DNA from: Verrucomicrobiia bacterium
GTDB taxonomy: Bacteria > Verrucomicrobiota > Verrucomicrobiia > Limisphaerales > DASXHY01
Direction of reading: 5' to 3'
DNA length: 64,000 nt
Assembly (NCBI GenBank): GCA_036272195.1
Contig: DATAZE010000058.1
Coordinates: 16,326 to 80,325, forward strand
The position numbers and the translations under genes were made by a program. Within the stretch, counting starts at the first letter, position 1, and the number at the start of each line of letters is the position of its first letter. Shown here piece by piece: positions 6,437 to 59,165 of this stretch. The notes beneath the pieces were generated by a model. The model ran no database searches. It was not told where the DNA came from and saw only the letters and a list, made by a program, of their open reading frames with translations.

Positions 6437-9364
6437 ATGCCCACTCAATTTCTCTATCCGCGTCCCGAATATCCCCGGCCCGACCGGCAGCGGGGCACGA
6501 TTGAGGGCGACGACTGGTTAAATCTCAACGGCCCGTGGCAATTTCGTTTCGATGGCAACCGGCGCGGAAATGAAGAGCTTTGGTTCACGCCCGACCACTC
6601 AGAATGGCGCGAACAAATCATCGTGCCCTTCTGCTGGGAATCCCTCGCCGCGTGGGGCGAGGGCGACGCCGCAGGCAATGACAACTACTACGCCACCCGC
6701 GTCTTCCGCAACCCGCTCGAAGTGACGCGCGAGAACCATCGCTCGGCGGTGCGCTATGAGGTGGGATGGTATCGGCGTTTGGTGGAGATTCCGCAAACCG
6801 ACGCCTGGAAAAACAAGCGCGTCATTCTCACGATCGGCGCGGCGGATTTTTTCACCGATTGCTGGTGCAACGGAAAACATCTCGGCCACCACGAAGGCGG
6901 CTATACCCCATTCGATTTCGATCTCACGGACGCGTTGGTGGAACAGGACGGCAAACGGACCGCTTTGATCGTTTTTCGCGTTGAGGACCCGATGGACAAC
7001 CGCGAGCAGCCCGTCGGCAAACAATGGCGCTGGTACACCACCACGAGCGGCATCTGGCAAACCGTGTTCATCGAGCCGCGAAGCGAAACGCACATTAAAT
7101 TGTTCCGCATCGTCAGTGATATCGACAAAGGCACGGCGCAATTCACAATTGAATGCGCGAACACGAAAAACGGATGTTCGGTCGAGATCGAAATCAGCCC
7201 TCCTGGGAGCGCCGCCGTCCCGGCGGCAAGCCCCAACTGCGACCAGGCCGGCGAGACGCCAGCGCTCACAGGGAACTGCGCCACGTCCAGCGAACCGCAA
7301 ACCTCCCTGGTTAAAGTCAAAAATGGCCGCGCCGAAACCACCATCAAGCTCAACACCGTTCGCCTGTGGGACCCGAACGCGCCGAACCTTTACAACGTCC
7401 AGCTCCGCCTGCGCACCAACGGCGACAAATACGACACCGTGCGCACTTATTTCGGGCTGCGCAAAATCGATTTTGAGATCGCCAGGGATTCCGGTGTGCC
7501 CGCTGCGCTTCGGTTAAACGGCGTTCCCCGCTATCTGCGCGGCGCGCTGCATCAGTCTTTTTATCCGGATGGCGTTTACACCGCCGCCAGCGTGAACGTC
7601 ATCAAGAACGACATCACGCGCGCGAAGGAATACGGCTTCAATTTTCTCCGCATCCACATCAAGGTGGACGATCCGTTGATCTATCATTGGGCCGACAAGC
7701 TGGGAATTTTGCTCATGGCTGATTTCCCGAATTTCGGTGAAGGCGGCGACACCGCGTTCGGCCGCCGACGGTTTGAGCAAATGGTGCATGAAGCGATTGA
7801 GCGCGATTTCAATCATCCATCCATCTTTGCGTGGTGTTTGTTCAATGAAACCTGGGGTTTCGGCGGCCAAATGAGTTTCCTCGATAAACTCCTCGCACCA
7901 ACACCCGCCGTCGCGCCCGGCGATGAAAAATCAATTGCCGAAACCGCGAAGAAAAAAGGAGGCGCGACCGAAGCAACACCCTTGTCCAAACCGCAGGTGT
8001 GGGTCCAACAAATGTGGGAACTCGCCAAATGCCTCGACCCTACAAGGCTAGTCGAAGACATGAGCGTTTGTCATTGGGACCACCTGGAATATTATCAGCA
8101 CTGCGATACCGACATCAACTCGTGGCACTTTTACATCAACGATTACCAGAAGGCGAAAGAGCACATTCAGAAAATCGTCAAATCAACTTTCGTCGGCTCC
8201 AGTTTTAATTACGTCCCCGGTTTTCAACACAAAGGTCAACCGCTCATCAACAGCGAATACGGCGGCATCGGCGCGCTCGATGGCGACCGAGACATCAGTT
8301 GGAGCTTCAAATTTCTCACCAACGAATTGCGCCGCCACCAGCAAATTTCCGCCTATATCTATACCGAACTGCACGATGTGGAATGGGAATACAACGGCTT
8401 CCTGAATTACGACCGCACGCCGAAGGAATTCGGCTACGACCCGCGTTTCATCAATGAAAGCAATACGCTGCCCATCGATGCCCCGCCGATTGTCCACGCG
8501 AAACCTGGCGACACGATCCGGTTTGAAATTTCGTCGTCGCACTTTTCCTCGCGTGCCTACAAAAATGTTTCGCTGCATTGGGAAATGGGCGGCGTGGATA
8601 CTCGCGGGCGGGTCTACCAGGACCTCGCGCTCGGGCGCGTGCAGATTCCCTTTCCTCACCGCAAAGTCGAGCACGCGCACACGATGGAATTAAAAATGCC
8701 GGACACGGAGATGCTGTGCACACTCCTGCTTTCCGCCCGCACCTCGGACGGTACGGTGCTCGCGCAAAACTTCGTGAACTTTTTCTGCAACGGCATTTAT
8801 CCGACCGCCCGTGAAGAGACACCACGCGCGTTGATCCTGCGCGGCCTGCCCGCCAATTGGGAGCAAGCCAATTGGGAAGGTGAATTCGCCGATCGCGACA
8901 AAGCGCGCGCGGAAGACATTTGCTACGGTTTCGGCCATGGTTATTTTGAGTGGAAACTGCCGCTGGAAGGCGCGGACCTCGCAAAAGCGCACCGTTTAAA
9001 AGTCGTATGCGAAGCCTCGTCGCATCGCATGGACAGTCCGCAAACGGATGCCGACATCTTTCCAACGACACTGCAACTTTCGTTGAATAACGTTCCGGTT
9101 TACAAAGGAGTATTGCGTAATCATCCGCACGACGCGCGCGGCGTGCTCAGTTATCTGCGCGGTGGCGCGGGCGCCTACGGTTATCTTGTCCACGCCTTCG
9201 CTGAAGGCGATCTGCTTCGTCAAATTGCCGCCAGTGATGGCGATGGTTCGCTCCGTCTGCGTTGCGCCGTGCCGCCGGATGCCTTGCCCGTGGGTGGTTT
9301 GACCCTCTACGGCGCTGAATGCGGGAGATTCCCGGTGTGCCCGACAGTGATTGTAGAGTGGTGA
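6437..9364 (+). CDS. Glycoside hydrolase family 2 protein (beta-galactosidase/beta-mannosidase-like)
   Basis: 975 aa. It has the sugar-binding domain motif GGYTPFDFDLTDAL, the acid/base region NHPSIFAWCLFNETWG and the nucleophile region LINSEYGG. Confidence 0.8.
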   Translation: MPTQFLYPRPEYPRPDRQRGTIEGDDWLNLNGPWQFRFDGNRRGNEELWFTPDHSEWREQIIVPFCWESLAAWGEGDAAGNDNYYATRVFRNPLEVTRENHRSAVRYEVGWYRRLVEIPQTDAWKNKRVILTIGAADFFTDCWCNGKHLGHHEGGYTPFDFDLTDALVEQDGKRTALIVFRVEDPMDNREQPVGKQWRWYTTTSGIWQTVFIEPRSETHIKLFRIVSDIDKGTAQFTIECANTKNGCSVEIEISPPGSAAVPAASPNCDQAGETPALTGNCATSSEPQTSLVKVKNGRAETTIKLNTVRLWDPNAPNLYNVQLRLRTNGDKYDTVRTYFGLRKIDFEIARDSGVPAALRLNGVPRYLRGALHQSFYPDGVYTAASVNVIKNDITRAKEYGFNFLRIHIKVDDPLIYHWADKLGILLMADFPNFGEGGDTAFGRRRFEQMVHEAIERDFNHPSIFAWCLFNETWGFGGQMSFLDKLLAPTPAVAPGDEKSIAETAKKKGGATEATPLSKPQVWVQQMWELAKCLDPTRLVEDMSVCHWDHLEYYQHCDTDINSWHFYINDYQKAKEHIQKIVKSTFVGSSFNYVPGFQHKGQPLINSEYGGIGALDGDRDISWSFKFLTNELRRHQQISAYIYTELHDVEWEYNGFLNYDRTPKEFGYDPRFINESNTLPIDAPPIVHAKPGDTIRFEISSSHFSSRAYKNVSLHWEMGGVDTRGRVYQDLALGRVQIPFPHRKVEHAHTMELKMPDTEMLCTLLLSARTSDGTVLAQNFVNFFCNGIYPTAREETPRALILRGLPANWEQANWEGEFADRDKARAEDICYGFGHGYFEWKLPLEGADLAKAHRLKVVCEASSHRMDSPQTDADIFPTTLQLSLNNVPVYKGVLRNHPHDARGVLSYLRGGAGAYGYLVHAFAEGDLLRQIAASDGDGSLRLRCAVPPDALPVGGLTLYGAECGRFPVCPTVIVEW

Positions 9365-9431
9365 TACGGTAATAAATTTCGCGCCCCGGTTTTTCTCTTG
9401 TCTCGCACTCCTTTTGTTTCACAATTCAAAC

Positions 9432-17230: not shown

Positions 17231-18601
17231 TTATGCATCCAGCACCAAATTCGACTTCGGTTTGCAAATACACGTCAGGCACGAACCTGTCTCGGCGCTC
17301 GCGCCTTGCGACGCCAGATATTCCACGTCGCCGGATTTGATGGCCACCAGGCAGGTGCCGCAATTTCCCGCGCGGCAACCGGCATCAATCCTGACTCCAC
17401 GCGCTTCGGCAAAGTCGAGCAGCGAACCCATCGCCGGGTCCCAATGATGCGTTTTGTTCGATTTGCCGAACGTCACCGTGATCTTCGAGAGCATCATCGT
17501 GTCGCTCGCCGATGGTGGCGCGGCTTTTTTCACCGACGCCGGGCCGAACGCTTCGAAATGCACATTTGCATCCGGCACGCCCCATTCCGTGAGTCCGTCC
17601 GTGATGCTCTTCATGAAAGCGCCCGGGCCGCACAGGAAATAATCGTAATTGTTCGAGGGCAGCAATTGTTTGAACAACTCCACCGTCACGCGGCCTTCGT
17701 GCTGGTAATCTTTGCCCTTGGCATCCTCTTTGGCCGGTTTGCTGTAGCAGACGTGCAGGCGCACGTTTTCATTTCCGGCGGCGATTTTTTCGAGATGCTC
17801 CTTGAGGATATGTTCCTTGCGATTGCGCGCGCCGAAGAAAAACCACACCTCGCGCTTTTGCCCGCTCTCCACAATCGCGTTCAGCATGCTCACCATCGGC
17901 GTGATGCCCACGCCGCCTGAAATCAGCACCACCGGCTTTTCCTCGGACATCTCCAGAAAGAAATGGCCGCCCGGCGCTTTCACATCGAGGATGTCGCCCA
18001 CTTTGATGGTGTCGCAGAAATACGACGAGGCAATCCCGCATTTGGCGCCCTCACAATCCGGCGGCGGCAGCGCCTTTTTGATCGTGACGCGGTAACAATC
18101 GGGCCGATGCGAATCCGAGAGCGAATAACAGCGGATGACGGGCTTGCCCTGGCCGGGCAGGTTCAGTTGAAAGGTAATATATTGGCCGGGTTTAAACTGC
18201 GGGAGCGGCCGCCCATCGTGCGGAGCGAGATAAAACGAATGCACGTCCTCGCATTCGCATACTTTTTTAAGGACCTGAAATTTTCGGTAACCGTTCCAGA
18301 CGAGGTTGATTTGTTCGACCTCTTTGGTCCGGGCTTTGGCCGTCTGGATTTCGATTTTTAACCGCTGGCGCGCCAGTGATTGTTGCTCGCGCTCGAATGA
18401 CAGTCGCCGCAAAGTCCCGTAACAAAGCGAGGCGGCGTAAAGGGTCAAAAATCCGAGCAAGAGATAACCGAAGAGGAGACTGATATTTCCCCCAAATGCA
18501 GATTGCATCTGTTGTATAAGGGATTGCATTTCTGGTGTGCAGAATATAACAAGGCGCTGTGCCCGGCAAACATTTAACTTGGTTCTCGCGGCATTCAACA
18601 A
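17231..18601 (-). CDS. Membrane-anchored FNR-like oxidoreductase (FAD + NAD(P)H domains) with a C-terminal plant-type 2Fe-2S ferredoxin
   Basis: It has an N-terminal TM helix, the RCYSLSD (RxYS) FAD motif, GGVGITPM NAD motif and CRAGNCGTC...CLTC 2Fe-2S motif. The true start may be MQSLIQ at 18529. Confidence 0.8.
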   Translation of the reverse strand: MLNAARTKLNVCRAQRLVIFCTPEMQSLIQQMQSAFGGNISLLFGYLLLGFLTLYAASLCYGTLRRLSFEREQQSLARQRLKIEIQTAKARTKEVEQINLVWNGYRKFQVLKKVCECEDVHSFYLAPHDGRPLPQFKPGQYITFQLNLPGQGKPVIRCYSLSDSHRPDCYRVTIKKALPPPDCEGAKCGIASSYFCDTIKVGDILDVKAPGGHFFLEMSEEKPVVLISGGVGITPMVSMLNAIVESGQKREVWFFFGARNRKEHILKEHLEKIAAGNENVRLHVCYSKPAKEDAKGKDYQHEGRVTVELFKQLLPSNNYDYFLCGPGAFMKSITDGLTEWGVPDANVHFEAFGPASVKKAAPPSASDTMMLSKITVTFGKSNKTHHWDPAMGSLLDFAEARGVRIDAGCRAGNCGTCLVAIKSGDVEYLASQGASAETGSCLTCICKPKSNLVLDA

Positions 18602-18695
18602 AAGAAAAGTGGCGGAGATCCGTCGCCATCCAAAACCTTGCGGATATCTTTGTGCGGCCGACCGCGCGCCAGCGGTTGCTCTGCTGGTCTTGCAG

Positions 18696-18882
18696 CCCGT
18701 CAGGGCGAAAGAAAATAGCCCACCGCTTCAGTGGTGGGGCGTTGCGCGCGAACGTTCAAAGTCCCGGAGGGACGGCAGAACCTCATGGAAGGAATTTCTG
18801 CCGTCCCTGCGGGACTTGGCAAAGCATGGACGTTCATCCCAGCGATGAATCACTGGGCTATTTTCTTTCGTCCTGGCGGACT
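18696..18882. repeat. REPIN/MITE-like nested palindromic element (transposase-less copy of the RAYT element at 22281-22911)
   Basis: Outer inverted arms run (CCCGTCAGGGCGAAAGAAAATAGCCCA ... TGGGCTATTTTCTTTCGTCCTGGCGGA). Inner arms are GTCCCGGAGGGACGGCAGAA (18761-18780) and TTCTGCCGTCCCTGCGGGAC (18796-18815), separated by 15 nt. Confidence 0.75.
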
Positions 18883-20031
18883 TGGCTTTTGGGCCTGCGC
18901 TCGCCCATTGCGGGTTTCGTTCTGATAACTTTATTCGTCATTTCCCCGCCGCGGGTTTTTGCTGATGAAACAACCTCTCCAGTTGTCGCGCCTAAATTTC
19001 TCGGTTCACAAACCTGCAGCTCGAGCAGTTGCCACGGCGGCGCAGGTGAAAAAAGCAATCAATACACGATCTGGTCCACGCACGATTTTCACCACGCGAG
19101 GCCTTATGCGACGCTCGAAACCGCACGATCCGAGCGGTTGGCTGAAGTCTTGAAACTCGGCAATCCCACACAAAGCGCGCGCTGCACTGTTTGTCATGCG
19201 CCTTTTGCCACTGTTCCCGCGGATCGCCTCGGCCACGATGCGCAAATCAGCGAAGGCATCTCGTGCGAAACCTGCCACGGCCCCGCCGAAAACTGGCTCC
19301 GTTCCCACACCCGGCACGATTACACGCACGCCGACCGCGGTGCCGCCGGAATGCGCGACCTGAAAAATCTCTACGTCCGCGCAAACACATGCGTCGCCTG
19401 CCATCAGAACATCGATCCCGAAATTCGCGCCGCCGGCCATCCGGAATTGATTTTCGAATTGGACGGGCAATCGGTGACGATGCCGAGGCACTGGCGCGAG
19501 GAGCGAACGCCGGCTGATCGGTGGTTTGTTGGGCAGGCAGTCGCGCTTCGCGAAATGAGCGCGCAATTACAAAGTTTTCCCAGCCTGGAGTTATCGAATC
19601 GCTGGGCCGGTCTTTTATGGGTGCTTCAACGGGCGGGCAAACCTGAAATTCTCCAAACGAATGACGAAGACATTGCGCGGGTGCAAAAACGTTTCGACGG
19701 TTTTGCGCGGGAAATCGCAATGATCCCAAAAGAAGAACCTTCCGCAAACGGCCTGAAACAAACGGTCCAACAGCTCTCCGCGAGCAGCACAGCTTTTGAA
19801 GATAAAATGATTCCCGTCCCACTCCAGGCACGCCGCGCCGAACGCCTCACACTCGCATTAGACCGTCTGGTTATAATGCTTCCCGGCGTAACCACCAATT
19901 CCGCCGTGAACCAATCCCTGAACAAGCTTTTTGCCGACGCCCAATCGCTGCCGGATTTTGACCCGAACCAGTTCGCGAAGGACCTGAACACATTCCATTC
20001 CAGTGTCGCCGGCTTTCTGGAAACAAAATAA
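18826..20031 (+). CDS. Exported tetrahaem c-type cytochrome (cytochrome c554-like N-terminus)
   Basis: Three CXXCH motifs (CTVCH, CETCH, CVACH) plus one CX4CH (CSSSSCH). The signal peptide ends in VFA/DE. ATG 18826 lies inside the REPIN; an alternative TTG start is about 18886. Confidence 0.75.
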   Translation: MDVHPSDESLGYFLSSWRTWLLGLRSPIAGFVLITLFVISPPRVFADETTSPVVAPKFLGSQTCSSSSCHGGAGEKSNQYTIWSTHDFHHARPYATLETARSERLAEVLKLGNPTQSARCTVCHAPFATVPADRLGHDAQISEGISCETCHGPAENWLRSHTRHDYTHADRGAAGMRDLKNLYVRANTCVACHQNIDPEIRAAGHPELIFELDGQSVTMPRHWREERTPADRWFVGQAVALREMSAQLQSFPSLELSNRWAGLLWVLQRAGKPEILQTNDEDIARVQKRFDGFAREIAMIPKEEPSANGLKQTVQQLSASSTAFEDKMIPVPLQARRAERLTLALDRLVIMLPGVTTNSAVNQSLNKLFADAQSLPDFDPNQFAKDLNTFHSSVAGFLETK

Positions 20032-22222
20032 GCGCTGCTTGGCGCTGCCCGTTTTTTGCCTGAGCGCCACGCTCGCGGCGGCGCAAACGAACTCCGCGCC
20101 CAACACCAACGCCCTCGCGCCGCACCAATTCATCGACACCAATTCACCGCCGCAATCGCCGGTAAAATTCAACCCGGACTTCGGCGTCCCGCCCTCGCGC
20201 TACCATCCGAGTCCAGCGCCCAATCCATCGATCAGCTCGCGCTGGGTGACAAATCTTCCGCCCGAACCAGTCGCACCGCCGGTTTTCAATCCCGACCCCG
20301 GCGCGATGTTGAAATCACAAACAACCAACACGCCGTTCTTTACCAACACATTTTCACCACCACCCGCTTATTCCGGCGAAGCGATACCCCCGGGGTTCAC
20401 GTTGCCGCGCCCGAACGTGCGCAGCGAACAACTCGAACTCACGAACCAGCCCGCGGGCAATTACGGCGCGGGCCCGCTGCCGCCCGGCCTCGAATTGCCC
20501 CGCACCAACACGCGCGGCAATCTTTACATCAAGGAAAAATGGGATACCCCGAAATACGCGCCGCTTTATGATTATACGCTCCCGCCATTCGCCGAACCCG
20601 AAACGAACCGGTGGCGCATCGGTTTTGTGCCGTGGCGCCGTTACACCAGCGGCGACATCGAGCAGCCCTATGAATCACCCAAGCCGATGCTCTGGCGGCC
20701 CTACGCGCAAAGCCTGCTCAAAGGCGACGCGCCCATTCTCGGACAGGATGTTTTTCTGGACCTGACCGCCGGCTCGGAAACCACTTTTGAATTGCGCCGC
20801 GTGCCGACGCCGAGTGGCGTCAGTTCATCGCACCCGAATAACGCGGAATTTTTTGGCAAAAGCGAGCAGATGTTCGTGCAAAATAATTTTTCATTCACCG
20901 TCGACCTCTTCCAAGGCGAAACCGTCTTCCAGCCGGTGCATTGGGCCTTGCGGCTGGAGCCGGTCTTCAACGTCAATTACACTGACACACGCGAGAACAA
21001 CGTCATCAGCCCGAATCCCCAGCGCGGCACGGATCGTCTCGATAGTTTCGTCGCGCTTCAGCAGGCGTTCATTGAGCTTCATCTCGGCGATCTTTCGGAG
21101 AATTATGATTTCATGGCCACGCGAATTGGCAACCAGCCCTTCAACAGCGATTTTCGCGGGTTCATTTTCAACGACGTCAATCTCGCTGCGCGTCTGTTCG
21201 GCAATTACGACAACAATCGCTGGCAATACAACGTCATCGTCTTCGACATGGACGAGAAGGACACGAATTCCGAGCTGAACAAATTCGCGCGGCGCGGCCA
21301 GGACGTTTTCATCGCGAATTTATTCCGCCAGGATTTCCTGTGGCACGGCTATACGGCGCAATTGAGTTTTCACGCGAATTTCGACCACGGCGGCACGCAC
21401 TACGACGAAAACGGGAACCTCACCCGCCCAGCGCCCCTCGGCTCGGTGGTGCCGCACGATGTGAACGCATTTTATTTTGGCTGGGCGGGGGACGGGCACA
21501 TTGGCCGGTTGAATCTCAGTCACGCATTTTATGAGGTGGTTGGGCACGACAGTTTCAACGGCCTCGCCGGCCGCCCGGTGGACATCAACGCTCAAATGGC
21601 CGCGCTGGAACTCTCTTATGATCGCGATTGGATCCGCTACAAGGCGTCCGTGTTCTATGCCTCCGGCGATCACAAAGCCACCGACGGCACGGCGAACGGG
21701 TTTGATTCCATTGTCGACAACCCGAATTTCACCGGCGGCCCGTTCAGTTGGTATGTGCACCAGGGATTCAACCTCGCCGGCACCGCAGTCGGCTTGAAAC
21801 AGCGCGACAGCCTCATCCCTGATTTGCGCACGAGCAAAACGGAAGGACAGGCGAACTTCGTTAACCCGGGCGTATTGCTCCTCGGCCTGGGAACGGAAAT
21901 GGATTTGACCCCAAGGCTGCGGAGTTTCATCAACGCGAATTACGTTCGCTTCATGGAAACCGATGCCATCAAAACCGCGCTCCTCACCGACAAAGTGGAC
22001 AATGAACTCGGCTACGATTTAAGCCTCGGATTTCAATATCGTCCGCTGTTGACGGACAACGTCATCATTTCGACCGGCTTTGGCACATTGATTCCCGGCA
22101 CCGGCTACCGCGACATTTACAAAACCAGCAGCGATCCTGTTTCCGGCTACGGCTCGCACGGCCGCGGCCGGGTGGATGATTTTCTTTACAGCGTGGTGTT
22201 GTCCGTCACACTTACTTATTAA
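20003..22222 (+). CDS. Putative outer-membrane beta-barrel (porin-like) protein with a Pro-rich N-terminal region
   Basis: Signal peptide LALPVFCLSATLAAAQ (an alternative TTG start is 20039). It is rich in alternating aromatic/polar strands and ends in the terminal ...VVLSVTLTY aromatic residue typical of OMPs. Confidence 0.55.
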   Translation: MSPAFWKQNKRCLALPVFCLSATLAAAQTNSAPNTNALAPHQFIDTNSPPQSPVKFNPDFGVPPSRYHPSPAPNPSISSRWVTNLPPEPVAPPVFNPDPGAMLKSQTTNTPFFTNTFSPPPAYSGEAIPPGFTLPRPNVRSEQLELTNQPAGNYGAGPLPPGLELPRTNTRGNLYIKEKWDTPKYAPLYDYTLPPFAEPETNRWRIGFVPWRRYTSGDIEQPYESPKPMLWRPYAQSLLKGDAPILGQDVFLDLTAGSETTFELRRVPTPSGVSSSHPNNAEFFGKSEQMFVQNNFSFTVDLFQGETVFQPVHWALRLEPVFNVNYTDTRENNVISPNPQRGTDRLDSFVALQQAFIELHLGDLSENYDFMATRIGNQPFNSDFRGFIFNDVNLAARLFGNYDNNRWQYNVIVFDMDEKDTNSELNKFARRGQDVFIANLFRQDFLWHGYTAQLSFHANFDHGGTHYDENGNLTRPAPLGSVVPHDVNAFYFGWAGDGHIGRLNLSHAFYEVVGHDSFNGLAGRPVDINAQMAALELSYDRDWIRYKASVFYASGDHKATDGTANGFDSIVDNPNFTGGPFSWYVHQGFNLAGTAVGLKQRDSLIPDLRTSKTEGQANFVNPGVLLLGLGTEMDLTPRLRSFINANYVRFMETDAIKTALLTDKVDNELGYDLSLGFQYRPLLTDNVIISTGFGTLIPGTGYRDIYKTSSDPVSGYGSHGRGRVDDFLYSVVLSVTLTY

Positions 22223-22280
22223 AGCCATGACGAAAATCCTTCGGTCAATAATCGGCACTCAGGGTAAACAATCTTTCGTT

Positions 22281-22911
22281 AGTCCGATAGGACGTCAGAT
22301 AATAGCCCACCGCTTTAGCGGTGGGTTTAGCCCAAACTTCCCAAGTCCCGCAGGGACGGCAGAACCTTAAAACATGCACGCGTTCACGAGCAGCCTCTAT
22401 CATTGTGTGTGGAGCACGAAAGACAGGCGGCCCGTCCTGACACCCGAAATTCAAGCTCGGCTTTGGCCATATCTAGGTGGAACTGCCCGGGCAAACAAAA
22501 CCTGGGCATTGGCCGTTGGTGGTGTCGCTGACCACGTCCATATCTTGCTTTCGCTGCCTTCAACACTCACAATTTCAAAAGCCATCCAATTGTTGAAAGG
22601 CAATTCGTCAAAGTGGTTGCATGAGGAGTTCCGCGATCTTCGGTCCTTTAATTGGCAGGAAGGATACGGAGCTTTCACGATTGGAATGTCGAGTGTAGCC
22701 GATACCAAAAACTATATTGCCACACAGAACGAACATCATCAGAAGAAAACGTTCCAGGAAAAGTTTCGTTCCTTTCTGGATAAGCACGGTTTGTCGTATG
22801 ATGCAGCGACCTTGTGGGACTAATTTCTGCCGTCCCTGCGGGACTCGACGACGCTCCGGCGTTCATCCCAGCGATGAATCGCTGGGCTATTTTCTTTCGT
22901 CCTTACGGACT
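22281..22911 (+). mobile_element. IS200/IS605-like RAYT element with nested terminal hairpins
   Basis: The outer inverted arms are AGTCCGATAGGACGTCAGATAATAGCCCA and TGGGCTATTTTCTTTCGTCCTTACGGACT. The inner arms are GTCCCGCAGGGACGGCAGAA (22345-22364) and TTCTGCCGTCCCTGCGGGAC (22825-22844), hugging the transposase ORF. Confidence 0.8.
22374..22823 (+). CDS. REP-associated tyrosine transposase (IS200-like Y1/HUH transposase)
   Basis: 149 aa. It has the YHCVWSTKDRRP start, the HUH motif (HVHIL) and the WQEGYGAF tyrosine motif. Confidence 0.85.
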   Translation: MHAFTSSLYHCVWSTKDRRPVLTPEIQARLWPYLGGTARANKTWALAVGGVADHVHILLSLPSTLTISKAIQLLKGNSSKWLHEEFRDLRSFNWQEGYGAFTIGMSSVADTKNYIATQNEHHQKKTFQEKFRSFLDKHGLSYDAATLWD

Positions 22912-25900
22912 GGGCTGGTTGCTTTCGCGATATTTATATTCCTGTCGTTTATTCTTTCGTCGACACCGCTTTTTGCCGATGACGCTGGCTTCGGCCCATC
23001 GATTTCCGTTCCGCGTGATTTGCCTGAAAACGATCCGCATGGTTTGCCCGCGCGAAATTGGATCGATCAAACTCGCGAAGAGGCCACGCACAAAAGCCTG
23101 GGCTGCCTCGAATGCCATAAAGGCATTGAAAACACATCCATGCACGTCAGCCCAAACGTCGTGCTCGGCTGCATCGATTGCCATGGCGGCAATCCGACAC
23201 CCGGCCTCACTCAATACAAGGCGCATGTTCAACCGTCGCACCCGGAATTCTGGCCCACCTCCGCCAATCCGGCTGACGCCGACGTGCTGCTCAATCAGGA
23301 ATCGCCGGAATTCATCCGGTTTGTGAACCCCGGCGATTTGCGCGTGGCGCAACAGACCTGCGGCGTCTGTCATCAGCAAGCGGTCGGGCACGTGTGGCTC
23401 AGCATGATGAACCACGGCGCCACGCTCTGGGGCGCGGCGCTATATAATAATGGCGCGTTTCCGTTGAAGAATTATCGCTACGGCCAGGCCTATGGGCCGA
23501 ATGGCGAGCCGTTGAAGCTGATAAATCCTCACACGCCCACGCCCGAAGAAACGCGATTGCACGGAATTTTGCCGTTCATCGAACCGCCGCCGCGTTTTCC
23601 CATCGCGCAACCGAGCAATATCCTTCGCATCTTCGAAAAGGGCGGCGAGAAGCAATTGCAACTCGGCATTCCCAATTCCGAAGAGGAGCCGGGGCATCCT
23701 GCGCGCCGTTTGTCCGAGCGCGGATTCGGCACGTTGAACCGGATTGATCCCGTTTTTCTCAACATCCAAAAAATGCGCCTGCATGATCCGCTGCTCGGCT
23801 TCATGGGCTCGAACAATCATCCCGGCGATTACCGGAGCAGCGGCTGCTCGGCCTGCCACGTGATTTACGCGAACGATCGCTCGCCCTCGCAGTCCGGCTG
23901 GTATTCCAAGTACGGCAATCAGGGCCTCAGTTTCAGCGGCGATCAATCCGGCCTGCGCCACGATGAACGCGGCCACCCGATTCACCACGAATTGACGCGC
24001 TCGATTCCCAGCAGCCAATGCATGGTCTGCCACATGCACCAGGGCAATTTATTCGTGAACCCGTTCCTTGGTTACACCTGGTGGGACCAGGAATCTGACG
24101 GCGAGTTCATGTATCCGAACCCGGACAATCCGATTGCCAACGACCCGCATTTCCGCGGCAGCCGCTCGCTCGCGCAAATGACGCAGCAGCACAATCCCAC
24201 GGACGAAGAATTTGTTAATTCCATTCGCAACAATCCCGAAGCCGCCGCGGCACGCGGGTTGTGGGGCAATTTGGATTTTCTGGAAAAAACCGCTGAGTTG
24301 AATCCGAAACTCAAGAACACGCAATTCGCCGATTATCACGGCCACGGCTGGATTTTCCGCGCCGTATTCAAGCACGATCGCCAGGGCAACCTTCGCGATC
24401 TCGACGACAACATTATCCCGCACGATGATCCGGATAAATGGGCCAAGGCCGTGCACTTGAAGGACGCGCACCTCGCGCACGGCATGCAATGCGTGGATTG
24501 CCATTTCGAAGCCGACGCCCACGGCAACGGCAATCTCTACGGCGACCCGCGCGCCGCCACAACCATCGAGTGCATTGACTGCCACGGGACTATTTTGAAA
24601 CGCCCGAGCCTCCAAACCACAGGCAATGGCGGCCAGATTGATTTGAATCAAAGTTCAACACCTTCGGGTCCGCGCTTTATCTGGGAAGGCAAAAAACTCT
24701 TTCAACGCTCCATGATGAGCCCGGATGTGCGCTGGGAAATTCCGCAAACGATGGACACGATCGACCCGGCGTCATCCCACTACAATCCGAAATCCGCGTA
24801 CGCGAAAACGCTGCGGCGCGAGGGCAAGGAATGGGGAGATGCCCCGAATGGTGAAAAATGCTCCCGCGAACTGGCGCATGACAATTCCAACATCTCCTGC
24901 CAGGTCTGTCACAGCTCATGGGCCACGAGCTGCTTCGGCTGCCACTTGCCCATGCGCGCAAATCAACGGGCGCCGGCCAATAAGTTCGAAGGCGTCACCA
25001 CCCGCAATTTCACCACGTACAACCCGCAGGTCGTCCGCGACGACGTTTTCCAACTCGGCATTGACGCCACTTACAAGAATCACCGGCTCGCCATATTGCG
25101 GTCGTCATCCGCCGTGATCGTCGGCTCGCAGAACGCGAATCGTGAATGGGTTTATTCGCAGCAACAAACCGTGAGCGCCGAAGGCTACAGCGGCCAGGCG
25201 TTCAACCCGCATTTTCCGCACACCACGAGCGGCGTCGGCACGACCAAGACCTGCACCGATTGCCATCTTTCGAAGGAGAATGACAACAACGCGTGGATGA
25301 CTCAATTGCTCGGCTTCGGCACGGGCGCGGTGAATTTCTTCGGCCGCTACGCGTACGTCGGCGAGGGCAAAGGCGGGTTTGATGCCGTCGCGTGGACCGA
25401 GCAGGAGGAACCGCAAGCCGCCTTCGGCAGTCATTTGCAGAAGATTGCTTACCCCGCTGATTACGCACAACACGAGACCAACCACGGCGTTCTCACCGAA
25501 GCCTATCACCATCACGGGAAGGAAATTCTCGATCTGACATTGCGCGGCGAATATCTCTACACGGCCAACGGTGAAGACGGCTTTGAAGTTTTCGACGTGG
25601 CGAACATCGATCAAAAAGGTTTCTCCGAACGCATTGTGAGCGCGCCCGTTTCGCCGCTTGGCCAGCGGACTTACGTGCGGACGAAATACGCCACTTCCGT
25701 CACGCTGCCGAGCACGCTGGGCATCGATCCGTTGCGGCAGCATTACCCGGAAATTTCCAAGGCTGAAATTAGTGGCACGGGCGTCCCGCCCGTGCGAAGC
25801 GCTCAAGAAACACACGGGCGAGACGCCCGTGCCACTACGAGCGACATTTACACGGGCAACGAAGAACAGCCCATCAGCCTCATCTACACCTGGGCGTTTA

Positions 25901-26886
25901 TCACCGACCGCGAAGAGGGCCTGGTCATGTGCAGCGTCGGGACGCTGGTGGACGGCCAGCCTGACAACAACTTTTTGGATAAGGAAAAAATCATTCGTTA
26001 CAACCCGGACGGCAAACTCACCGGCGCCATGCATTCTTTCATGGCCGGAACGAATTTATTCGTGGTCGGCAAAAACGGCCTCTTCGTGCTCGGTCTGAGC
26101 TACACGGAATTGAAGGCGCCGACGATGGTTGCCGAATTGAGCGATCACGAATTCAAAAACCCCCGCGCGGTGGGCGTGCAATTCCGTTACGCTTTCGTGA
26201 CTGACGAAGAAGGCTTCAAAGTCGTGGACATCACCGATCCGGCGCATCCGAAATTGATTCCGGGCGCCACGGTGCCGCTCAAACACGCCCAGCGCTTTTA
26301 CCTCGCGCGCACTTACGCTTACGTGGCAGATGGCGAGGACGGCCTCGCATTCATCGACATCACCAATCCAGAGAAACCGAAACTGGAACGCCTCTACACC
26401 GCCGATGGCGCGCTCAACGACGTTCGTGCCGTGCAAGTCGGCTCCATCAGCGCATCGGAATTTGCGCTTGTCGCCGATGGAAAGAACGGCTTGCGGGTCA
26501 TTCAACTCATCTCGCCAGAAAACGTCCCCGGTCACATGGGCTTCAGTCCCGCGCCGAATCCGAAATTGATTGCGACTTATCCCACGAGCGGCCCGGCGCT
26601 CGCGGTTTCGCGCGGTCTTGACCGCGACCGCGTCGTCGATGAAACTGGCAATCAAACCGTGGTTTTTGGCCGGCGCGGCTCGCGTCCGTTCCACCTTGAT
26701 GAAATGGAAAAATTTTATCGGCATGAAGATGGCAGTCTGTATCAGGTGGAAGACGTCGTCGCCCGCGCGGGCAAACTCCAAGCTCGCGATGGAACCGAAC
26801 TTCCCGCGCCTGCCCGATTCGCAGCGCCACCTGAACCCACTCTTTCGTCACCTCCACAAAACCGCCTCGTTCGCCGGGGCAATTGA
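22798..26886 (+). CDS. Giant decahaem c-type cytochrome fused to a C-terminal LVIVD-repeat beta-propeller
   Basis: Ten CXXCH motifs (CLECH, CIDCH, CGVCH, CSACH, CMVCH, CVDCH, CIDCH, CQVCH, CFGCH, CTDCH). LVIVD-type repeats are present (YLYTANGEDGFEVFDVANI, YAFVTDEEGFKVVDITDP, YAYVADGEDGLAFIDITNP, FALVADGKNGLRVIQL). The signal-like segment ends in LFA/DD. The start is uncertain (ATG 22798/22801 inside the RAYT 3' end, or a non-canonical start later). Confidence 0.8.
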   Translation: MMQRPCGTNFCRPCGTRRRSGVHPSDESLGYFLSSLRTGLVAFAIFIFLSFILSSTPLFADDAGFGPSISVPRDLPENDPHGLPARNWIDQTREEATHKSLGCLECHKGIENTSMHVSPNVVLGCIDCHGGNPTPGLTQYKAHVQPSHPEFWPTSANPADADVLLNQESPEFIRFVNPGDLRVAQQTCGVCHQQAVGHVWLSMMNHGATLWGAALYNNGAFPLKNYRYGQAYGPNGEPLKLINPHTPTPEETRLHGILPFIEPPPRFPIAQPSNILRIFEKGGEKQLQLGIPNSEEEPGHPARRLSERGFGTLNRIDPVFLNIQKMRLHDPLLGFMGSNNHPGDYRSSGCSACHVIYANDRSPSQSGWYSKYGNQGLSFSGDQSGLRHDERGHPIHHELTRSIPSSQCMVCHMHQGNLFVNPFLGYTWWDQESDGEFMYPNPDNPIANDPHFRGSRSLAQMTQQHNPTDEEFVNSIRNNPEAAAARGLWGNLDFLEKTAELNPKLKNTQFADYHGHGWIFRAVFKHDRQGNLRDLDDNIIPHDDPDKWAKAVHLKDAHLAHGMQCVDCHFEADAHGNGNLYGDPRAATTIECIDCHGTILKRPSLQTTGNGGQIDLNQSSTPSGPRFIWEGKKLFQRSMMSPDVRWEIPQTMDTIDPASSHYNPKSAYAKTLRREGKEWGDAPNGEKCSRELAHDNSNISCQVCHSSWATSCFGCHLPMRANQRAPANKFEGVTTRNFTTYNPQVVRDDVFQLGIDATYKNHRLAILRSSSAVIVGSQNANREWVYSQQQTVSAEGYSGQAFNPHFPHTTSGVGTTKTCTDCHLSKENDNNAWMTQLLGFGTGAVNFFGRYAYVGEGKGGFDAVAWTEQEEPQAAFGSHLQKIAYPADYAQHETNHGVLTEAYHHHGKEILDLTLRGEYLYTANGEDGFEVFDVANIDQKGFSERIVSAPVSPLGQRTYVRTKYATSVTLPSTLGIDPLRQHYPEISKAEISGTGVPPVRSAQETHGRDARATTSDIYTGNEEQPISLIYTWAFITDREEGLVMCSVGTLVDGQPDNNFLDKEKIIRYNPDGKLTGAMHSFMAGTNLFVVGKNGLFVLGLSYTELKAPTMVAELSDHEFKNPRAVGVQFRYAFVTDEEGFKVVDITDPAHPKLIPGATVPLKHAQRFYLARTYAYVADGEDGLAFIDITNPEKPKLERLYTADGALNDVRAVQVGSISASEFALVADGKNGLRVIQLISPENVPGHMGFSPAPNPKLIATYPTSGPALAVSRGLDRDRVVDETGNQTVVFGRRGSRPFHLDEMEKFYRHEDGSLYQVEDVVARAGKLQARDGTELPAPARFAAPPEPTLSSPPQNRLVRRGN

Positions 26887-58445: not shown

Positions 58446-58604
58446 AGCTCCGTAGGAGCGGCATCTCTGTAGCAAAAAGGAACAAAGGAATATCTGGCTC
58501 CGCAGGAGCGGCATCTTCTGCATTGCGACGGACTATGCCGCTCCTGCGGAGCTTGCCATCACTGGCAACTCCGCCTGCTACAAATAGGTCGCTCCTACGG
58601 AGCT
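58446..58604. repeat. Nested REP cluster (four units, two forward and two inverted) forming a REPIN-like double hairpin
   Basis: The units are AGCTCCGTAGGAGCGGCATC (58446), GGCTCCGCAGGAGCGGCATC (58497), ATGCCGCTCCTGCGGAGC (58535) and GTCGCTCCTACGGAGC (58589). Each unit is a 5-bp stem with a GYA loop. Confidence 0.7.
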
Positions 58605-58838: not shown

Positions 58839-58929
58839 GGAGCGTGATTATTTTCTTACTTGTTGACGCTTCTCGAATTCTCCGGAGTTGCAGGAGAAAC
58901 AATTAATGTCTCACCCATTCCACCTGAAG

Positions 58930-59131
58930 CAACCTGAAAGGTTGCTGGAAATTAGCCTCGGGTTGAGCGAAGCGATACCCCAGGAAAACGTCCAATAAAA
59001 TAATGCGCCCTGAAAGAGCGCCGGAAACCATGGAGAGAACATTCCGCCGCCCTTCCAGGGCGGTGAAAAAATACGAAGCTGACCAGGGGCTGCGGCCTTC
59101 GGCCTTGCCCCCGGCTAATTTCCAGCAAGCC
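58930..59131. repeat. MITE/REP-like long inverted repeat downstream of dnaK
   Basis: GGTTGCTGGAAATTAGCC (58930-58947) faces GGCTAATTTCCAGCAAGCC (59113-59131), with further imperfect complementarity extending inward. Confidence 0.5.
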
Positions 59132-59165
59132 TTCAGCTTGCTCAAAATTATCTTCGACAATTTCA

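Follow-up and report, generated by a model that had tools for sequence, protein, structure and literature searches.

A long-resident REPtron- or TIRtron-like cassette in a verrucomicrobial cytochrome operon, probably serving as the 5' end of a giant cytochrome gene

RAYT and TIRYT genes reportedly occur within REPtrons and TIRtrons (Nunvar 2010; Ton-Hoang 2012), flanked by inverted REPs or long TIRs. The transposases and repeats of the RAYT type are usually described as extragenic and single-copy, their benefit to the host being obscure. The flanking of RAYT and TIRYT genes by inverted REPs or long TIRs is described by Di Nocera (2013, PMC3733652), who also reports that many REPs map to the N-termini of ORFs, where mis-called starts are suspected. 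RAYTs are treated together with REPINs by Bertels & Rainey (2011, PMC3116915), and REPINs again in PMC3337134. Two further kinds of repeat touch genes directly: the palindromic elements of Rickettsia, which lie in frame within genes (Ogata 2000, as cited in PMC3184786), and the REP2 repeats of Neisseria and upstream repeats of Borrelia, which carry a promoter and a ribosome binding site together with an ATG (Delihas 2011, PMC3184786).

The locus considered here lies in a window of 64,000 nucleotides, the whole stretch of DNA that was analyzed; the host is a soil Verrucomicrobium. A first-pass annotation had described two copies of one nested-palindrome element, copy B with a transposase of 149 amino acids and copy A, less than 4 kb upstream, without one. 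Both were found very nearly where they had been placed (copy A begins at 18694 rather than 18696), and the pair is real and RAYT/REPIN-like: the copies share their units, and the inverted units of copy A are separated by a spacer of only 13–15 nt where copy B holds the transposase ORF. The parts of the two copies are as follows.

18694..18781, minus strand: left unit of copy A, with three hairpins, inverted with respect to the right unit (nhmmer E = 2e-21; inverted-repeat arms I2; fold)
18796..18882, plus strand: right unit of copy A, reading FCRPCGTWQSMDVHPSDESLGYFLSSWRT in the tetrahaem cytochrome frame and holding ATG 18826 (nhmmer E = 7e-24; translation)
22281..22365, minus strand: left unit of copy B (nhmmer E = 1e-21; fold z = -4.0)
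22374..22823, plus strand: transposase, 149 aa, IS200-like Y1/HUH, RAYT- or TIRYT-like (Pfam PF01797, NCBIfam NF033573, dN/dS)
22825..22911, plus strand: right unit of copy B, reading FCRPCGTRRRSGVHPSDESLGYFLSSLRT in the giant cytochrome frame (nhmmer E = 3e-22)
22867..22899, plus strand: hairpin 2 of that right unit (CCCAGCG ATGAAT CGCTGGG) and a T-rich tract, terminator-like, in sense orientation and inside the proposed leader (consensus terminator scan; fold)

The building block shared by the two copies is a unit of 88 nt with three hairpins, of the REP/TIR type. A copy count of the element across the 4.35-Mb genome, which the first-pass annotation had proposed, was made with nhmmer and gives about 25–28 units, among which the four units of copies A and B score at E = 1e-21 to 7e-24. 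Only two doublets without a transposase occur in the genome (copy A and C25:30759-30943), the remaining units (about 20) being singlets. Past the foot of hairpin 2 comes CTATT, or AATAG when the opposite strand is read, and nearly all copies thus have ATAG there instead of GTAG. Comparison of 16 full-length copies revealed compensatory changes in 6 of the 17 hairpin pairs. The units are constrained as DNA or RNA hairpins, and neither their freedom from stop codons nor their conservation is a clean sign of coding. A seemingly conserved ORF beside seven units (MNTQSKIERAD) was considered and turned out to be no gene, just a 70-nt non-coding extension of a subfamily of the repeat.

The transposase is recognized by the Pfam model PF01797 (E = 2e-28; 99 bits against a cut-off of 23), and its translation contains H54-V-H56 and, within NYIATQ, Y114, which I take to be the HUH motif and the catalytic tyrosine. 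The claim of a HUH/Y1 enzyme is thereby borne out, and the RAYT label in part. On the one hand, the protein passes NCBI's IS200 model (NF033573, 75.4 bits, cut-off 55) and fails its RAYT model (NF047646, 23.5 bits, cut-off 80). On the other hand, the gene lies between inverted copies of a dispersed palindromic repeat, which is the layout of a RAYT gene in a REPtron, and it departs from classical IS200 elements in existing as one copy only and in having flanking units that are inverted, not on the same strand. Three paralogues in the genome are 38–47% identical to it, and units in inverted orientation also flank more distant transposase homologues in relatives. Copy B therefore reads as a REPtron or TIRtron, the sole transposase-bearing copy of the repeat.

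Every base of copy B falls within an ORF. Its neighbors are the following.

20003..22222, plus strand: gene for an outer-membrane barrel-like protein of 739 aa, upstream of copy B (ORF list; orthologues 79–91% identical lie beside the same cassette)
22227..22370, plus strand: short ORF of 47 codons, 18 of them its own, reading the left unit as SPIGRQIIAHRFSGG...SPAGTAEP (translation; ten-locus comparison)
22798..26886, plus strand: giant decahaem cytochrome with LVIVD repeats, from the proposed ATG 22798/22801 (translation; gene call in locus L165; dN/dS)
22912..22980, plus strand: signal peptide, its hydrophobic core and cleavage region, reading GLVAFAIFIFLSFILSSTPLFA and then DD (translation; same layout in ten loci)

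The succession of barrel, unit, transposase, unit and giant cytochrome recurs in nine further assemblies (loci L080, L082, L084, L085, L087, L088, L091, L165 and L242, with the reference genome's own locus as G000), in which the transposase is 71–93% identical. These ten loci are related by descent and should not be read as ten independent trials. Among the orthologues the transposase has a dN/dS of 0.065, with dS at least 1 in most pairs, and the giant cytochrome, in the loci bearing the element, has a dN/dS of about 0.05 (0.04–0.075) at dS 0.6–1.2, its ORF intact at 1324 and 1305 codons. The dS values of the two genes are weakly correlated (r = 0.32) because dS is saturated, and co-divergence is not settled by this comparison. 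Conservation within the cassette peaks in the right unit, at 87% mean identity as against 76–79% in its neighbors. Copy B, being syntenic in these loci, is an old, long-resident cassette of the operon and not a fresh insertion, and its retention goes back at least to the divergence of these lineages (dS about 1). In loci that carry the element, purifying selection on the giant cytochrome is strong, and the gene appears to be functional there. At the same time, the distribution of the cassette among close relatives is patchy and polymorphic. Some carry another allele, whose signal peptide is encoded by a different dispersed palindrome, and one cassette shows signs of exchange; the cassette appears to have been exchanged among relatives by recombination.

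On its left side, the cassette is tied to the operon through the short ORF. The ATG of this ORF lies 4 nt past the barrel stop and its own stop 3 nt before the ATG of the transposase. A similarly placed ATG follows the barrel stop in every locus but L091, whose sequence is truncated on that side, and in all ten, L091 included, the left unit is read in one phase. ATG and element are always separated by complete codons (13, 15, 15, 16, 16, 18, 18 and 51; L165, whose left flank contains an extra unit, has a longer stretch), changes in the length of the left linker coming in multiples of 3. The end of the short ORF overlaps the transposase ATG or lies 0–5 nt from it, and in L082 the two are fused in frame. 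From this placement of start and stop, the transposase is probably translated by coupling to the operon. Near other transposase homologues in relatives the flanking units are general; the short ORF is not clearly so. A consensus scan predicted no promoter within the cassette, and expression by read-through from upstream transcripts is for that reason plausible, as the REPtron literature suggests.

On its right side, the cassette overlaps the giant cytochrome gene. The first-pass annotation had pointed out that the right units of copies A and B are read in one frame as VHPSDESLGYFLSS(W/L)RT, running on into both cytochrome ORFs, and translation confirms this. It had also held that the giant cytochrome lacks a canonical start downstream of the element. 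None that is usable exists there, the first being TTG 23020, beyond the signal peptide, but two adjacent in-frame ATGs inside the element had been overlooked (22798/22801). They lie within the last nine codons of the transposase gene, whose 3' end the cytochrome ORF, read from the first of them, overlaps by 26 nt. In all ten loci an ATG at -114 or -111 begins an open cytochrome frame, and in all ten the hydrophobic core starts exactly where the element ends. The features of a signal peptide, judged by eye, are RRR...LRT, GLVAFAIFIFLSFIL and SSTPLFA, followed by DD. The linker RRR is preserved through synonymous changes (CGA CGA CGC, CGG CGG CGC, CGA CGG CGC). In the non-genic units of the genome, by comparison, the linker varies in length (55–61) and the leader frame is interrupted by stops in 9 of 15, so the open leader frame is not merely a property of the repeat family.

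The account I consider rather likely is that copy B is a long-resident REPtron or TIRtron cassette in which the cytochrome starts inside the end of the transposase gene, its leader running through the right unit. Ribosomes would translate the short ORF from the barrel stop through the left unit to the transposase ATG. Initiation of the giant cytochrome would most likely occur at ATG 22798/22801, and ribosomes would then cross the right unit, producing an n-region of 38 residues, MMQRPCGTNFCRPCGTRRRSGVHPSDESLGYFLSSLRT, that runs into the hydrophobic core at the end of the element, with cleavage probably after LFA and export of the mature protein. Translation of the right unit would also prevent the terminator-like hairpin from forming. 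Thus the earlier suggestion that the element supplies a start codon and n-region probably holds for the giant cytochrome, in view of the ten open loci, the five among them with no alternative start and the signs of selection. The gene call by JGI in L165, from an independent gene caller, uses the ATG equivalent to 22798/22801. No ribosome binding site is apparent at the proposed start, which is no objection to it, because the genome as a whole shows no enrichment for Shine-Dalgarno sequences. In favor of the start, the GAT (Asp) codon that creates the ATG at -111 is invariant in the nine close orthologues, whereas of the codons for 84 invariant residues only 11 are themselves unchanged. Against a start within the element, conservation of the ATG is partly forced, the codons that form it being those for a conserved Tyr-Asp pair of the transposase. 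It would also be unusual for a signal peptide to reach 60 residues and to hold acidic residues in its n-region.

Is the element instead wholly an untranslated leader, the cytochrome starting just past it at a canonical or near-cognate codon (CTG 22915 in this genome)? On this view the open frame across the right unit would simply come along with a repeat that is conserved anyway, and the right unit does have reasons of its own to be conserved. In five of the ten loci a canonical start lies at +0 to +9 past the element (ATG in L085 and L242, GTG in L165 and L087, TTG in L088), and in these the element could be a 5'-UTR. The other five (G000, L080, L084, L082 and L091) lack any canonical start after the element that leaves a usable signal peptide. 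Four of them, all but L082, offer a CTG at +3 to +12, but initiation at CTG is rare in bacteria, any hydrophobic core can be expected to contain codons for Leu, Val and Met by chance, and L082 has not even a CTG that would serve. Moreover, signal peptides begun in this way would have no n-region, since the element boundary is where the core starts, and the sole positive charge nearby, the Arg of ...RT, is encoded by the element. I judge an untranslated leader to be unlikely, though worth weighing against a start within the transposase gene.

A more ambitious interpretation, and a decidedly doubtful one, would make the whole cassette, from the short ORF through both units and the transposase to the hydrophobic core, a portable module of export leader and control, governing the cytochrome either through translation of a hairpin or through excision. 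Related Verrucomicrobia would swap the cassette by recombination, the other allele drawing its signal peptide from its own palindrome. Expression of the cytochrome might require ribosomes to translate through the terminator-like REP hairpin, or else seamless excision by the transposase might rejoin the in-phase flanks to give a canonical signal peptide. If so, a RAYT-type transposase would have a conserved role at the level of the host, controlling a cytochrome of extracellular electron transfer.

The second of these options, taken by itself as a reversible switch, would have the transposase precisely remove 22281-22911 to join MTKILRSIIGTQGKQSFV to GLVAFAIFIFLSFILSSTPLFA, the cytochrome being made only in cells where excision has occurred. 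Both flanks do meet the cassette at codon boundaries in every locus, excision in the IS200/IS605 family is seamless, and the joined peptide would be a textbook signal peptide in G000/L080, L084, L087 and L242. Elsewhere, however, the products would be odd: L088 would have a second hydrophobic core after an old signal peptide that is itself complete, L165 an n-region of about 59 residues with an extra unit, and L082 an acidic n-region. Translational coupling between short ORF and transposase accounts just as well for the phase of the left flank. Furthermore, the units are inverted, whereas excision in the IS200/IS605 family uses ends on the same strand, and no RAYT-type enzyme is known to excise its own gene. 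The uninterrupted allele, MTKILRSIIGTQGKQSFVGLVAF..., was absent from the N-termini and loci recovered (with the first query, of 120 residues, only short fragments could count as candidates). Such a switch strikes me as improbable. A related proposal, of a recent disruptive insertion whose excision restores the gene, was downgraded in view of the nine syntenic loci and the strong purifying selection.

That the insertion split a signal peptide and inactivated the cytochrome, leaving a pseudogene in the making (or, in the terms of the first-pass annotation, a damaged operon), might be read from ATG 22227, which is conserved and directly follows the barrel gene yet lies 631 nt from the hydrophobic core, and from the stop of the short ORF at 22368, but it is scarcely credible and is rejected, given that ten loci retain the arrangement at a dS of about 1 from one another, that full-length cytochrome ORFs are intact at dN/dS 0.04–0.075 and that the transposase is also under purifying selection.

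Copy A presents a similar picture upstream of a second cytochrome gene.

18826..20031, plus strand: tetrahaem cytochrome ORF with three CxxCH and one CX4CH (Pfam Cytochrome_C554; start compared with G002, G007 and G008)

ATG 18826, within copy A, is the sole ATG in this frame, as had been claimed, and a scan for start candidates added TTG 18889, 7 nt past copy A. The frame is also open upstream, free of stops across the entire copy. A TTG near the end of copy A (at about 18886) had been offered beforehand as a start that would speak against the element. It is real, and it lines up with the GTG at which the gene starts in G008, a relative without the element, so the tetrahaem start in this genome may lie outside copy A. 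The same does not apply in the sister genome G002, which has no canonical start 3' of copy A and in which, for that reason, initiation must, as far as the start comparison goes, be within or upstream of the copy. A further finding that would have spoken against the element was named beforehand, namely relatives sharing the VHPSDESLGYF N-terminus without any palindrome, which would make it ordinary coding sequence; those without the palindrome proved to be without VHPSDESLGYF as well, so the idea is not refuted on this count. A far-upstream GTG (18559) was discarded as a start, the conserved DNA there being read in a different frame in G007. That stretch is conserved at the DNA level and not as protein, and is probably a promoter or operator. 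Across the genome, units abut genes in this manner at only two of about 20 loci.

All this adds a well-documented example of familiar behavior, and neither a new kind of system nor a new mobile element or mechanism. What is new is the age and conservation of the cassette. Copy B belongs to the operon of what is putatively an outer-membrane electron conduit, with both flanking ORFs locked to it in phase. It offers a concrete and testable example of repeat DNA as the 5' end of a gene, and the two alleles in close relatives provide a natural system in which to gauge the effect of the cassette on cytochrome expression. Annotators may also take a warning from it, since a start codon called within a repeat or a neighboring gene can be legitimate for proteins that Verrucomicrobia export.

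Comparison with the systems described at the outset makes both the likeness and the departures plain. With respect to length of leader, the extended signal peptides of autotransporters and two-partner secretion proteins, in which a long N-terminal extension precedes a normal hydrophobic core to give 50–60 residues in all, resemble the proposed leader of the giant cytochrome, but there is no sequence relationship, and the extension here is derived from a repeat. Neisseria REP2 and the Borrelia repeats are alike in that a dispersed repeat directly upstream of genes supplies signals for expression, including the start codon; they differ in that neither a promoter nor a ribosome binding site is evident here and the start is shared with the 3' end of a transposase gene. 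Like the Rickettsia palindromic elements and intragenic REPs, copy B has a palindrome that is in frame and free of stops, apparently read as protein in an otherwise normal gene that seems to be kept functional. Unlike the intragenic REPs suspected of reflecting mis-called starts, the leader is argued to be used by the evidence of ten loci, purifying selection and the lack of an alternative start in five, and the start codon of the giant cytochrome would itself lie within the transposase gene.

Copy A resembles a REPIN in consisting of two inverted units with a short spacer, lacking a transposase and lying near a copy that has one, and differs in that its arms are long with multiple hairpins and that this genome has just two such doublets, its units being mostly single and giving no sign of recent replication. 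Copy B is closest to the REPtrons and TIRtrons, sharing with them a single-copy Y1/HUH transposase between inverted copies of a repeat dispersed about 25-fold, persistence within a lineage and purifying selection. It stands apart from REPtrons in its units (88 nt and three hairpins, with ATAG in place of GTAG at the foot), in a protein that scores as the IS200 type and not by NCBI's RAYT model, in its polymorphism and apparent exchange by recombination among close relatives, and in being nested in an operon, where a short ORF upstream and a host gene downstream both overlap it.

The palindromic element occurs twice in the operon, where the first-pass annotation had placed it (with copy A beginning at 18694, given there as 18696):

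Copy A, 18694-18882: two inverted 88-nt units with 13-15 nt between them
Copy B, 22281-22911: the two units of copy A, flanking an ORF at 22374-22823

The fold of each unit consists of three small hairpins, and compensatory changes are seen in 6 of the 17 stem pairs among 16 full-length copies in the window's genome. The proposed count of copies was made with nhmmer over that genome (4.35 Mb in 65 contigs), in which the window is C58:16326-80325. It gave about 25-28 units, mostly single, with two doublets and seven units carrying a 70-nt extension. Those outside this operon are intergenic, mostly 90-300 nt from long ORFs, one of them preceding a start codon by about 15 nt. The claimed position, each time at a cytochrome gene's 5' end, thus holds for copies A and B and is particular to this operon, not a rule of the family.

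The 3' extension is conserved within its subfamily (TTTCCCCAATGAACAC...GATTTGCTCACC..TTTTAATCAC). It resembles the start of an ORF (MNTQSKIERAD), yet is no gene.

Units with the 70-nt extension in the window's genome (contig:position)
C28:61405
C62:76456
C25:30943
C30:535
C49:281046
C5:74035
C20:38388

Two more long inverted-repeat elements, different in sequence, lie at 58446-58604 and 58928-59142, with arms of 29 and 35 nt (86% complementarity); they probably belong to other repeat families.

The ORF of copy B encodes a Y1/HUH transposase (Pfam PF01797, E = 2e-28) with H54-V-H56 and Y114 present. It is the only one of its type in the genome, which also holds three paralogues 38-47% identical, each presumably with a repeat family of its own:

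C44:29939-30364, Y1 transposase paralogue
C5:50452-50895, Y1 transposase paralogue
C57:129203-129646, Y1 transposase paralogue
C44:34693-34930, fragment

Under the NCBI models the protein scores as IS200-type and fails the RAYT model, and the foot of the unit hairpin is ATAG, not GTAG. I therefore file the system as RAYT-like or TIRYT-like in behavior, outside the classical RAYT family; the "textbook" pair, one copy with and one without a transposase, is real and RAYT/REPIN-like.

Copy B, as a cassette of left unit, transposase and right unit, separates the barrel gene (20003..22222) from the giant decahaem cytochrome gene. The same order was found by a metagenome contig scan at seven loci, to which a JGI protein look-up added L165 and a species-genome scan L242, from a Limisphaerales MAG with just 64% identity in the cytochrome. 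The comparisons below cover ten loci, the window's included, which share ancestry. Copy B was first read as a disruptive insertion, since its removal (22281-22911) would fuse the flanking MTKILRSIIGTQGKQSFV and GLVAFAIFIFLSFILSSTPLFA in frame, and damage to the operon had been one of the alternatives in the first-pass annotation. That reading, and with it a pseudogene, is rejected: the giant cytochrome has a dN/dS of 0.04-0.075 at dS 0.6-1.2 among element-bearing loci, with full-length ORFs intact, and so stayed functional with the cassette present. The transposases of the other loci are 71-93% identical to the window's copy (dN/dS 0.065, with dS at least 1 in most pairs). The arrangement is old and conserved. 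Its best-conserved part is the right unit (mean identity 87%; left unit 76%, transposase 77%), although structural constraints on the unit confound coding signals.

On the left side, a short ORF begins at an ATG shortly after the barrel stop in each of the nine loci that extend this far; L091, whose contig is cut off upstream, has the ORF open in the phase of the others. Before the left unit the ORF comprises whole codons, 13 to 51 of them, and more in L165, where an additional third unit (9330-9416) lies in frame between barrel stop and left unit. All length changes in the left linker are multiples of three, and in all ten loci the short ORF passes through the left unit in a single phase, giving SPxGRKKIAHRFxGG...SPAGTAEP. 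It stops 0-5 nt from the transposase ATG or overlaps it, and in L082 the two are fused in frame. The window's genome keeps the ATG (22227), followed by 18 codons, the left unit and a stop at 22368.

On the right side, the two cytochrome ORFs do, as had been noted, run through their right units in one shared frame. The giant cytochrome was said to have no canonical start after the element; the first is indeed TTG 23020, past the signal peptide, but a tandem ATG ATG at 22798/22801, in the cytochrome frame and within the last nine transposase codons, had been missed. In all ten loci this frame runs stop-free through the right unit from an ATG at -114 or -111 (counted from the element end), and the hydrophobic core begins at the first base past the element. 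In five loci, the window's among them, no canonical start past the element leaves a usable signal peptide; in the remaining five, ATG, GTG or TTG is found at +0 to +9. The Asp codon that creates the -111 ATG is GAT in 9 of 9 close orthologues, while only 11 of 84 codons for invariant residues are themselves invariant, and the linker Arg triplet is maintained by synonymous changes. Non-genic units in the window's genome have linkers varying from 55 to 61 in length and, in 9 of 15, stops in the leader frame, so the open frame is not simply a family property. In L165, the JGI gene call has the cytochrome begin at the corresponding ATG, with a 26-nt overlap with the transposase. The missing Shine-Dalgarno site is uninformative, since the window's genome shows no enrichment for one (10% upstream of first ATGs, 9% in background).

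Initiation of the giant cytochrome is thus probably at 22798/22801. The transposase, for which a consensus scan predicts no promoter of its own, is probably coupled in translation to the barrel gene via the short ORF. The scan scores hairpin 2 of each unit, with the CTATTTTCTTTCG that follows it, as an outward-facing intrinsic terminator, which in the right unit lies in sense orientation inside the proposed leader; ribosomes translating the leader would block its formation.

A third palindromic repeat (25770-25837; arms TAGTGGCACGGGCG.../...CGCCCGTGCCACTA) lies in frame in the mature giant cytochrome, to which it contributes about 18 residues (SGTGVPPVRSAQETHGRDARAT) absent from the L165 orthologue. 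The genome has 108 occurrences of the repeat's core, CACGGGCG..CGCCCGTG.

Three same-genus genomes (G002, G007, G008) have the operon, none with copy B, and G002 with copy A at the same site; all three have an ATG 3-5 nt past the barrel stop, from which a signal peptide is read. The suggested comparison with orthologous loci lacking the insertion showed that in these genomes (L055-L057) and in the close relative L090 the signal peptide of the giant cytochrome is encoded by a different palindrome, GGAAGCTCCAAGCTCC...GGAGCTTGGAGCTTCC, read as ...KLQAPSSKLQ...GAWNLGFGAS and dispersed at at least 25 places in the window's genome (e.g., C35:52324-52358). In a tree of the barrel protein, cassette-bearing and cassette-free loci interleave with strong support. 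The genes on both sides are 93% identical between L084, which has the cassette, and L090, which lacks it, but the DNA between those genes is non-homologous. Each allele class is collinear across loci only about 80% identical. The window's genome and L080 share 92% identity over the cassette (hydrophobic core included), 81% over the barrel and 84% over the mature cytochrome, with a sharp drop at the signal-peptide/mature junction; dS is 0.32 for the transposase and about 0.9 or more for the cytochrome. In L088 the cassette comes after an entire signal peptide of the palindrome type. Exchange of the junction cassette by recombination among related lineages is the simplest reading.

In L083 (Ga0070681_10436599, ~20-300), a gene for a small membrane protein of about 75 residues (MSLFDVISIAIY...) lies between the barrel and giant cytochrome genes, its first codons resembling the short ORFs of L084, L085 and L087. 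This junction looks like an insertion hot spot.

Copy A is absent from G007, G008 and L165 and is therefore younger than copy B. One frame is stop-free through both its units in the window's genome and G002, the spacers differing in sequence and equal in length, and its left boundary has the phase of copy B. ATG 18826, inside copy A, and TTG 18889, 7 nt past it, are both candidate tetrahaem starts in the window's genome. The TTG gives MGLRSPIAGFVLITLFVISPPRVFA and aligns with the GTG start of G008, yet G002 has no canonical start past copy A, only TTG and GTG within it. Upstream (18540-18600), the interval that separates the tetrahaem gene from the divergent ferredoxin-reductase gene contains GCAGAATATAACAAGGCGCTGTGCCCGGCAAACATTT, which is conserved at the DNA level, also in G002, G007, G008 and L165; its reading frame differs among genomes, so it is probably a shared promoter/operator region.

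Y1 transposases between REPs or long inverted repeats that match dispersed families are known as REPtrons and TIRtrons (PMC3733652), and REPINs, as outlined in PMC3116915 and PMC3337134, are doublets without a transposase. Earlier descriptions exist of in-frame palindromes within genes and of REPs at the N-termini of ORFs, the latter suspected to reflect mis-called starts (PMC3733652; PMC3184786), and in Neisseria and Borrelia repeats bring a start codon (PMC3184786). What is particular to copy B, compared with these known cases, is the long-conserved nesting of a transposase-bearing copy in an operon, with ORFs phase-locked on both sides, a host start codon proposed to lie within the transposase gene, and a two-allele polymorphism at the site.
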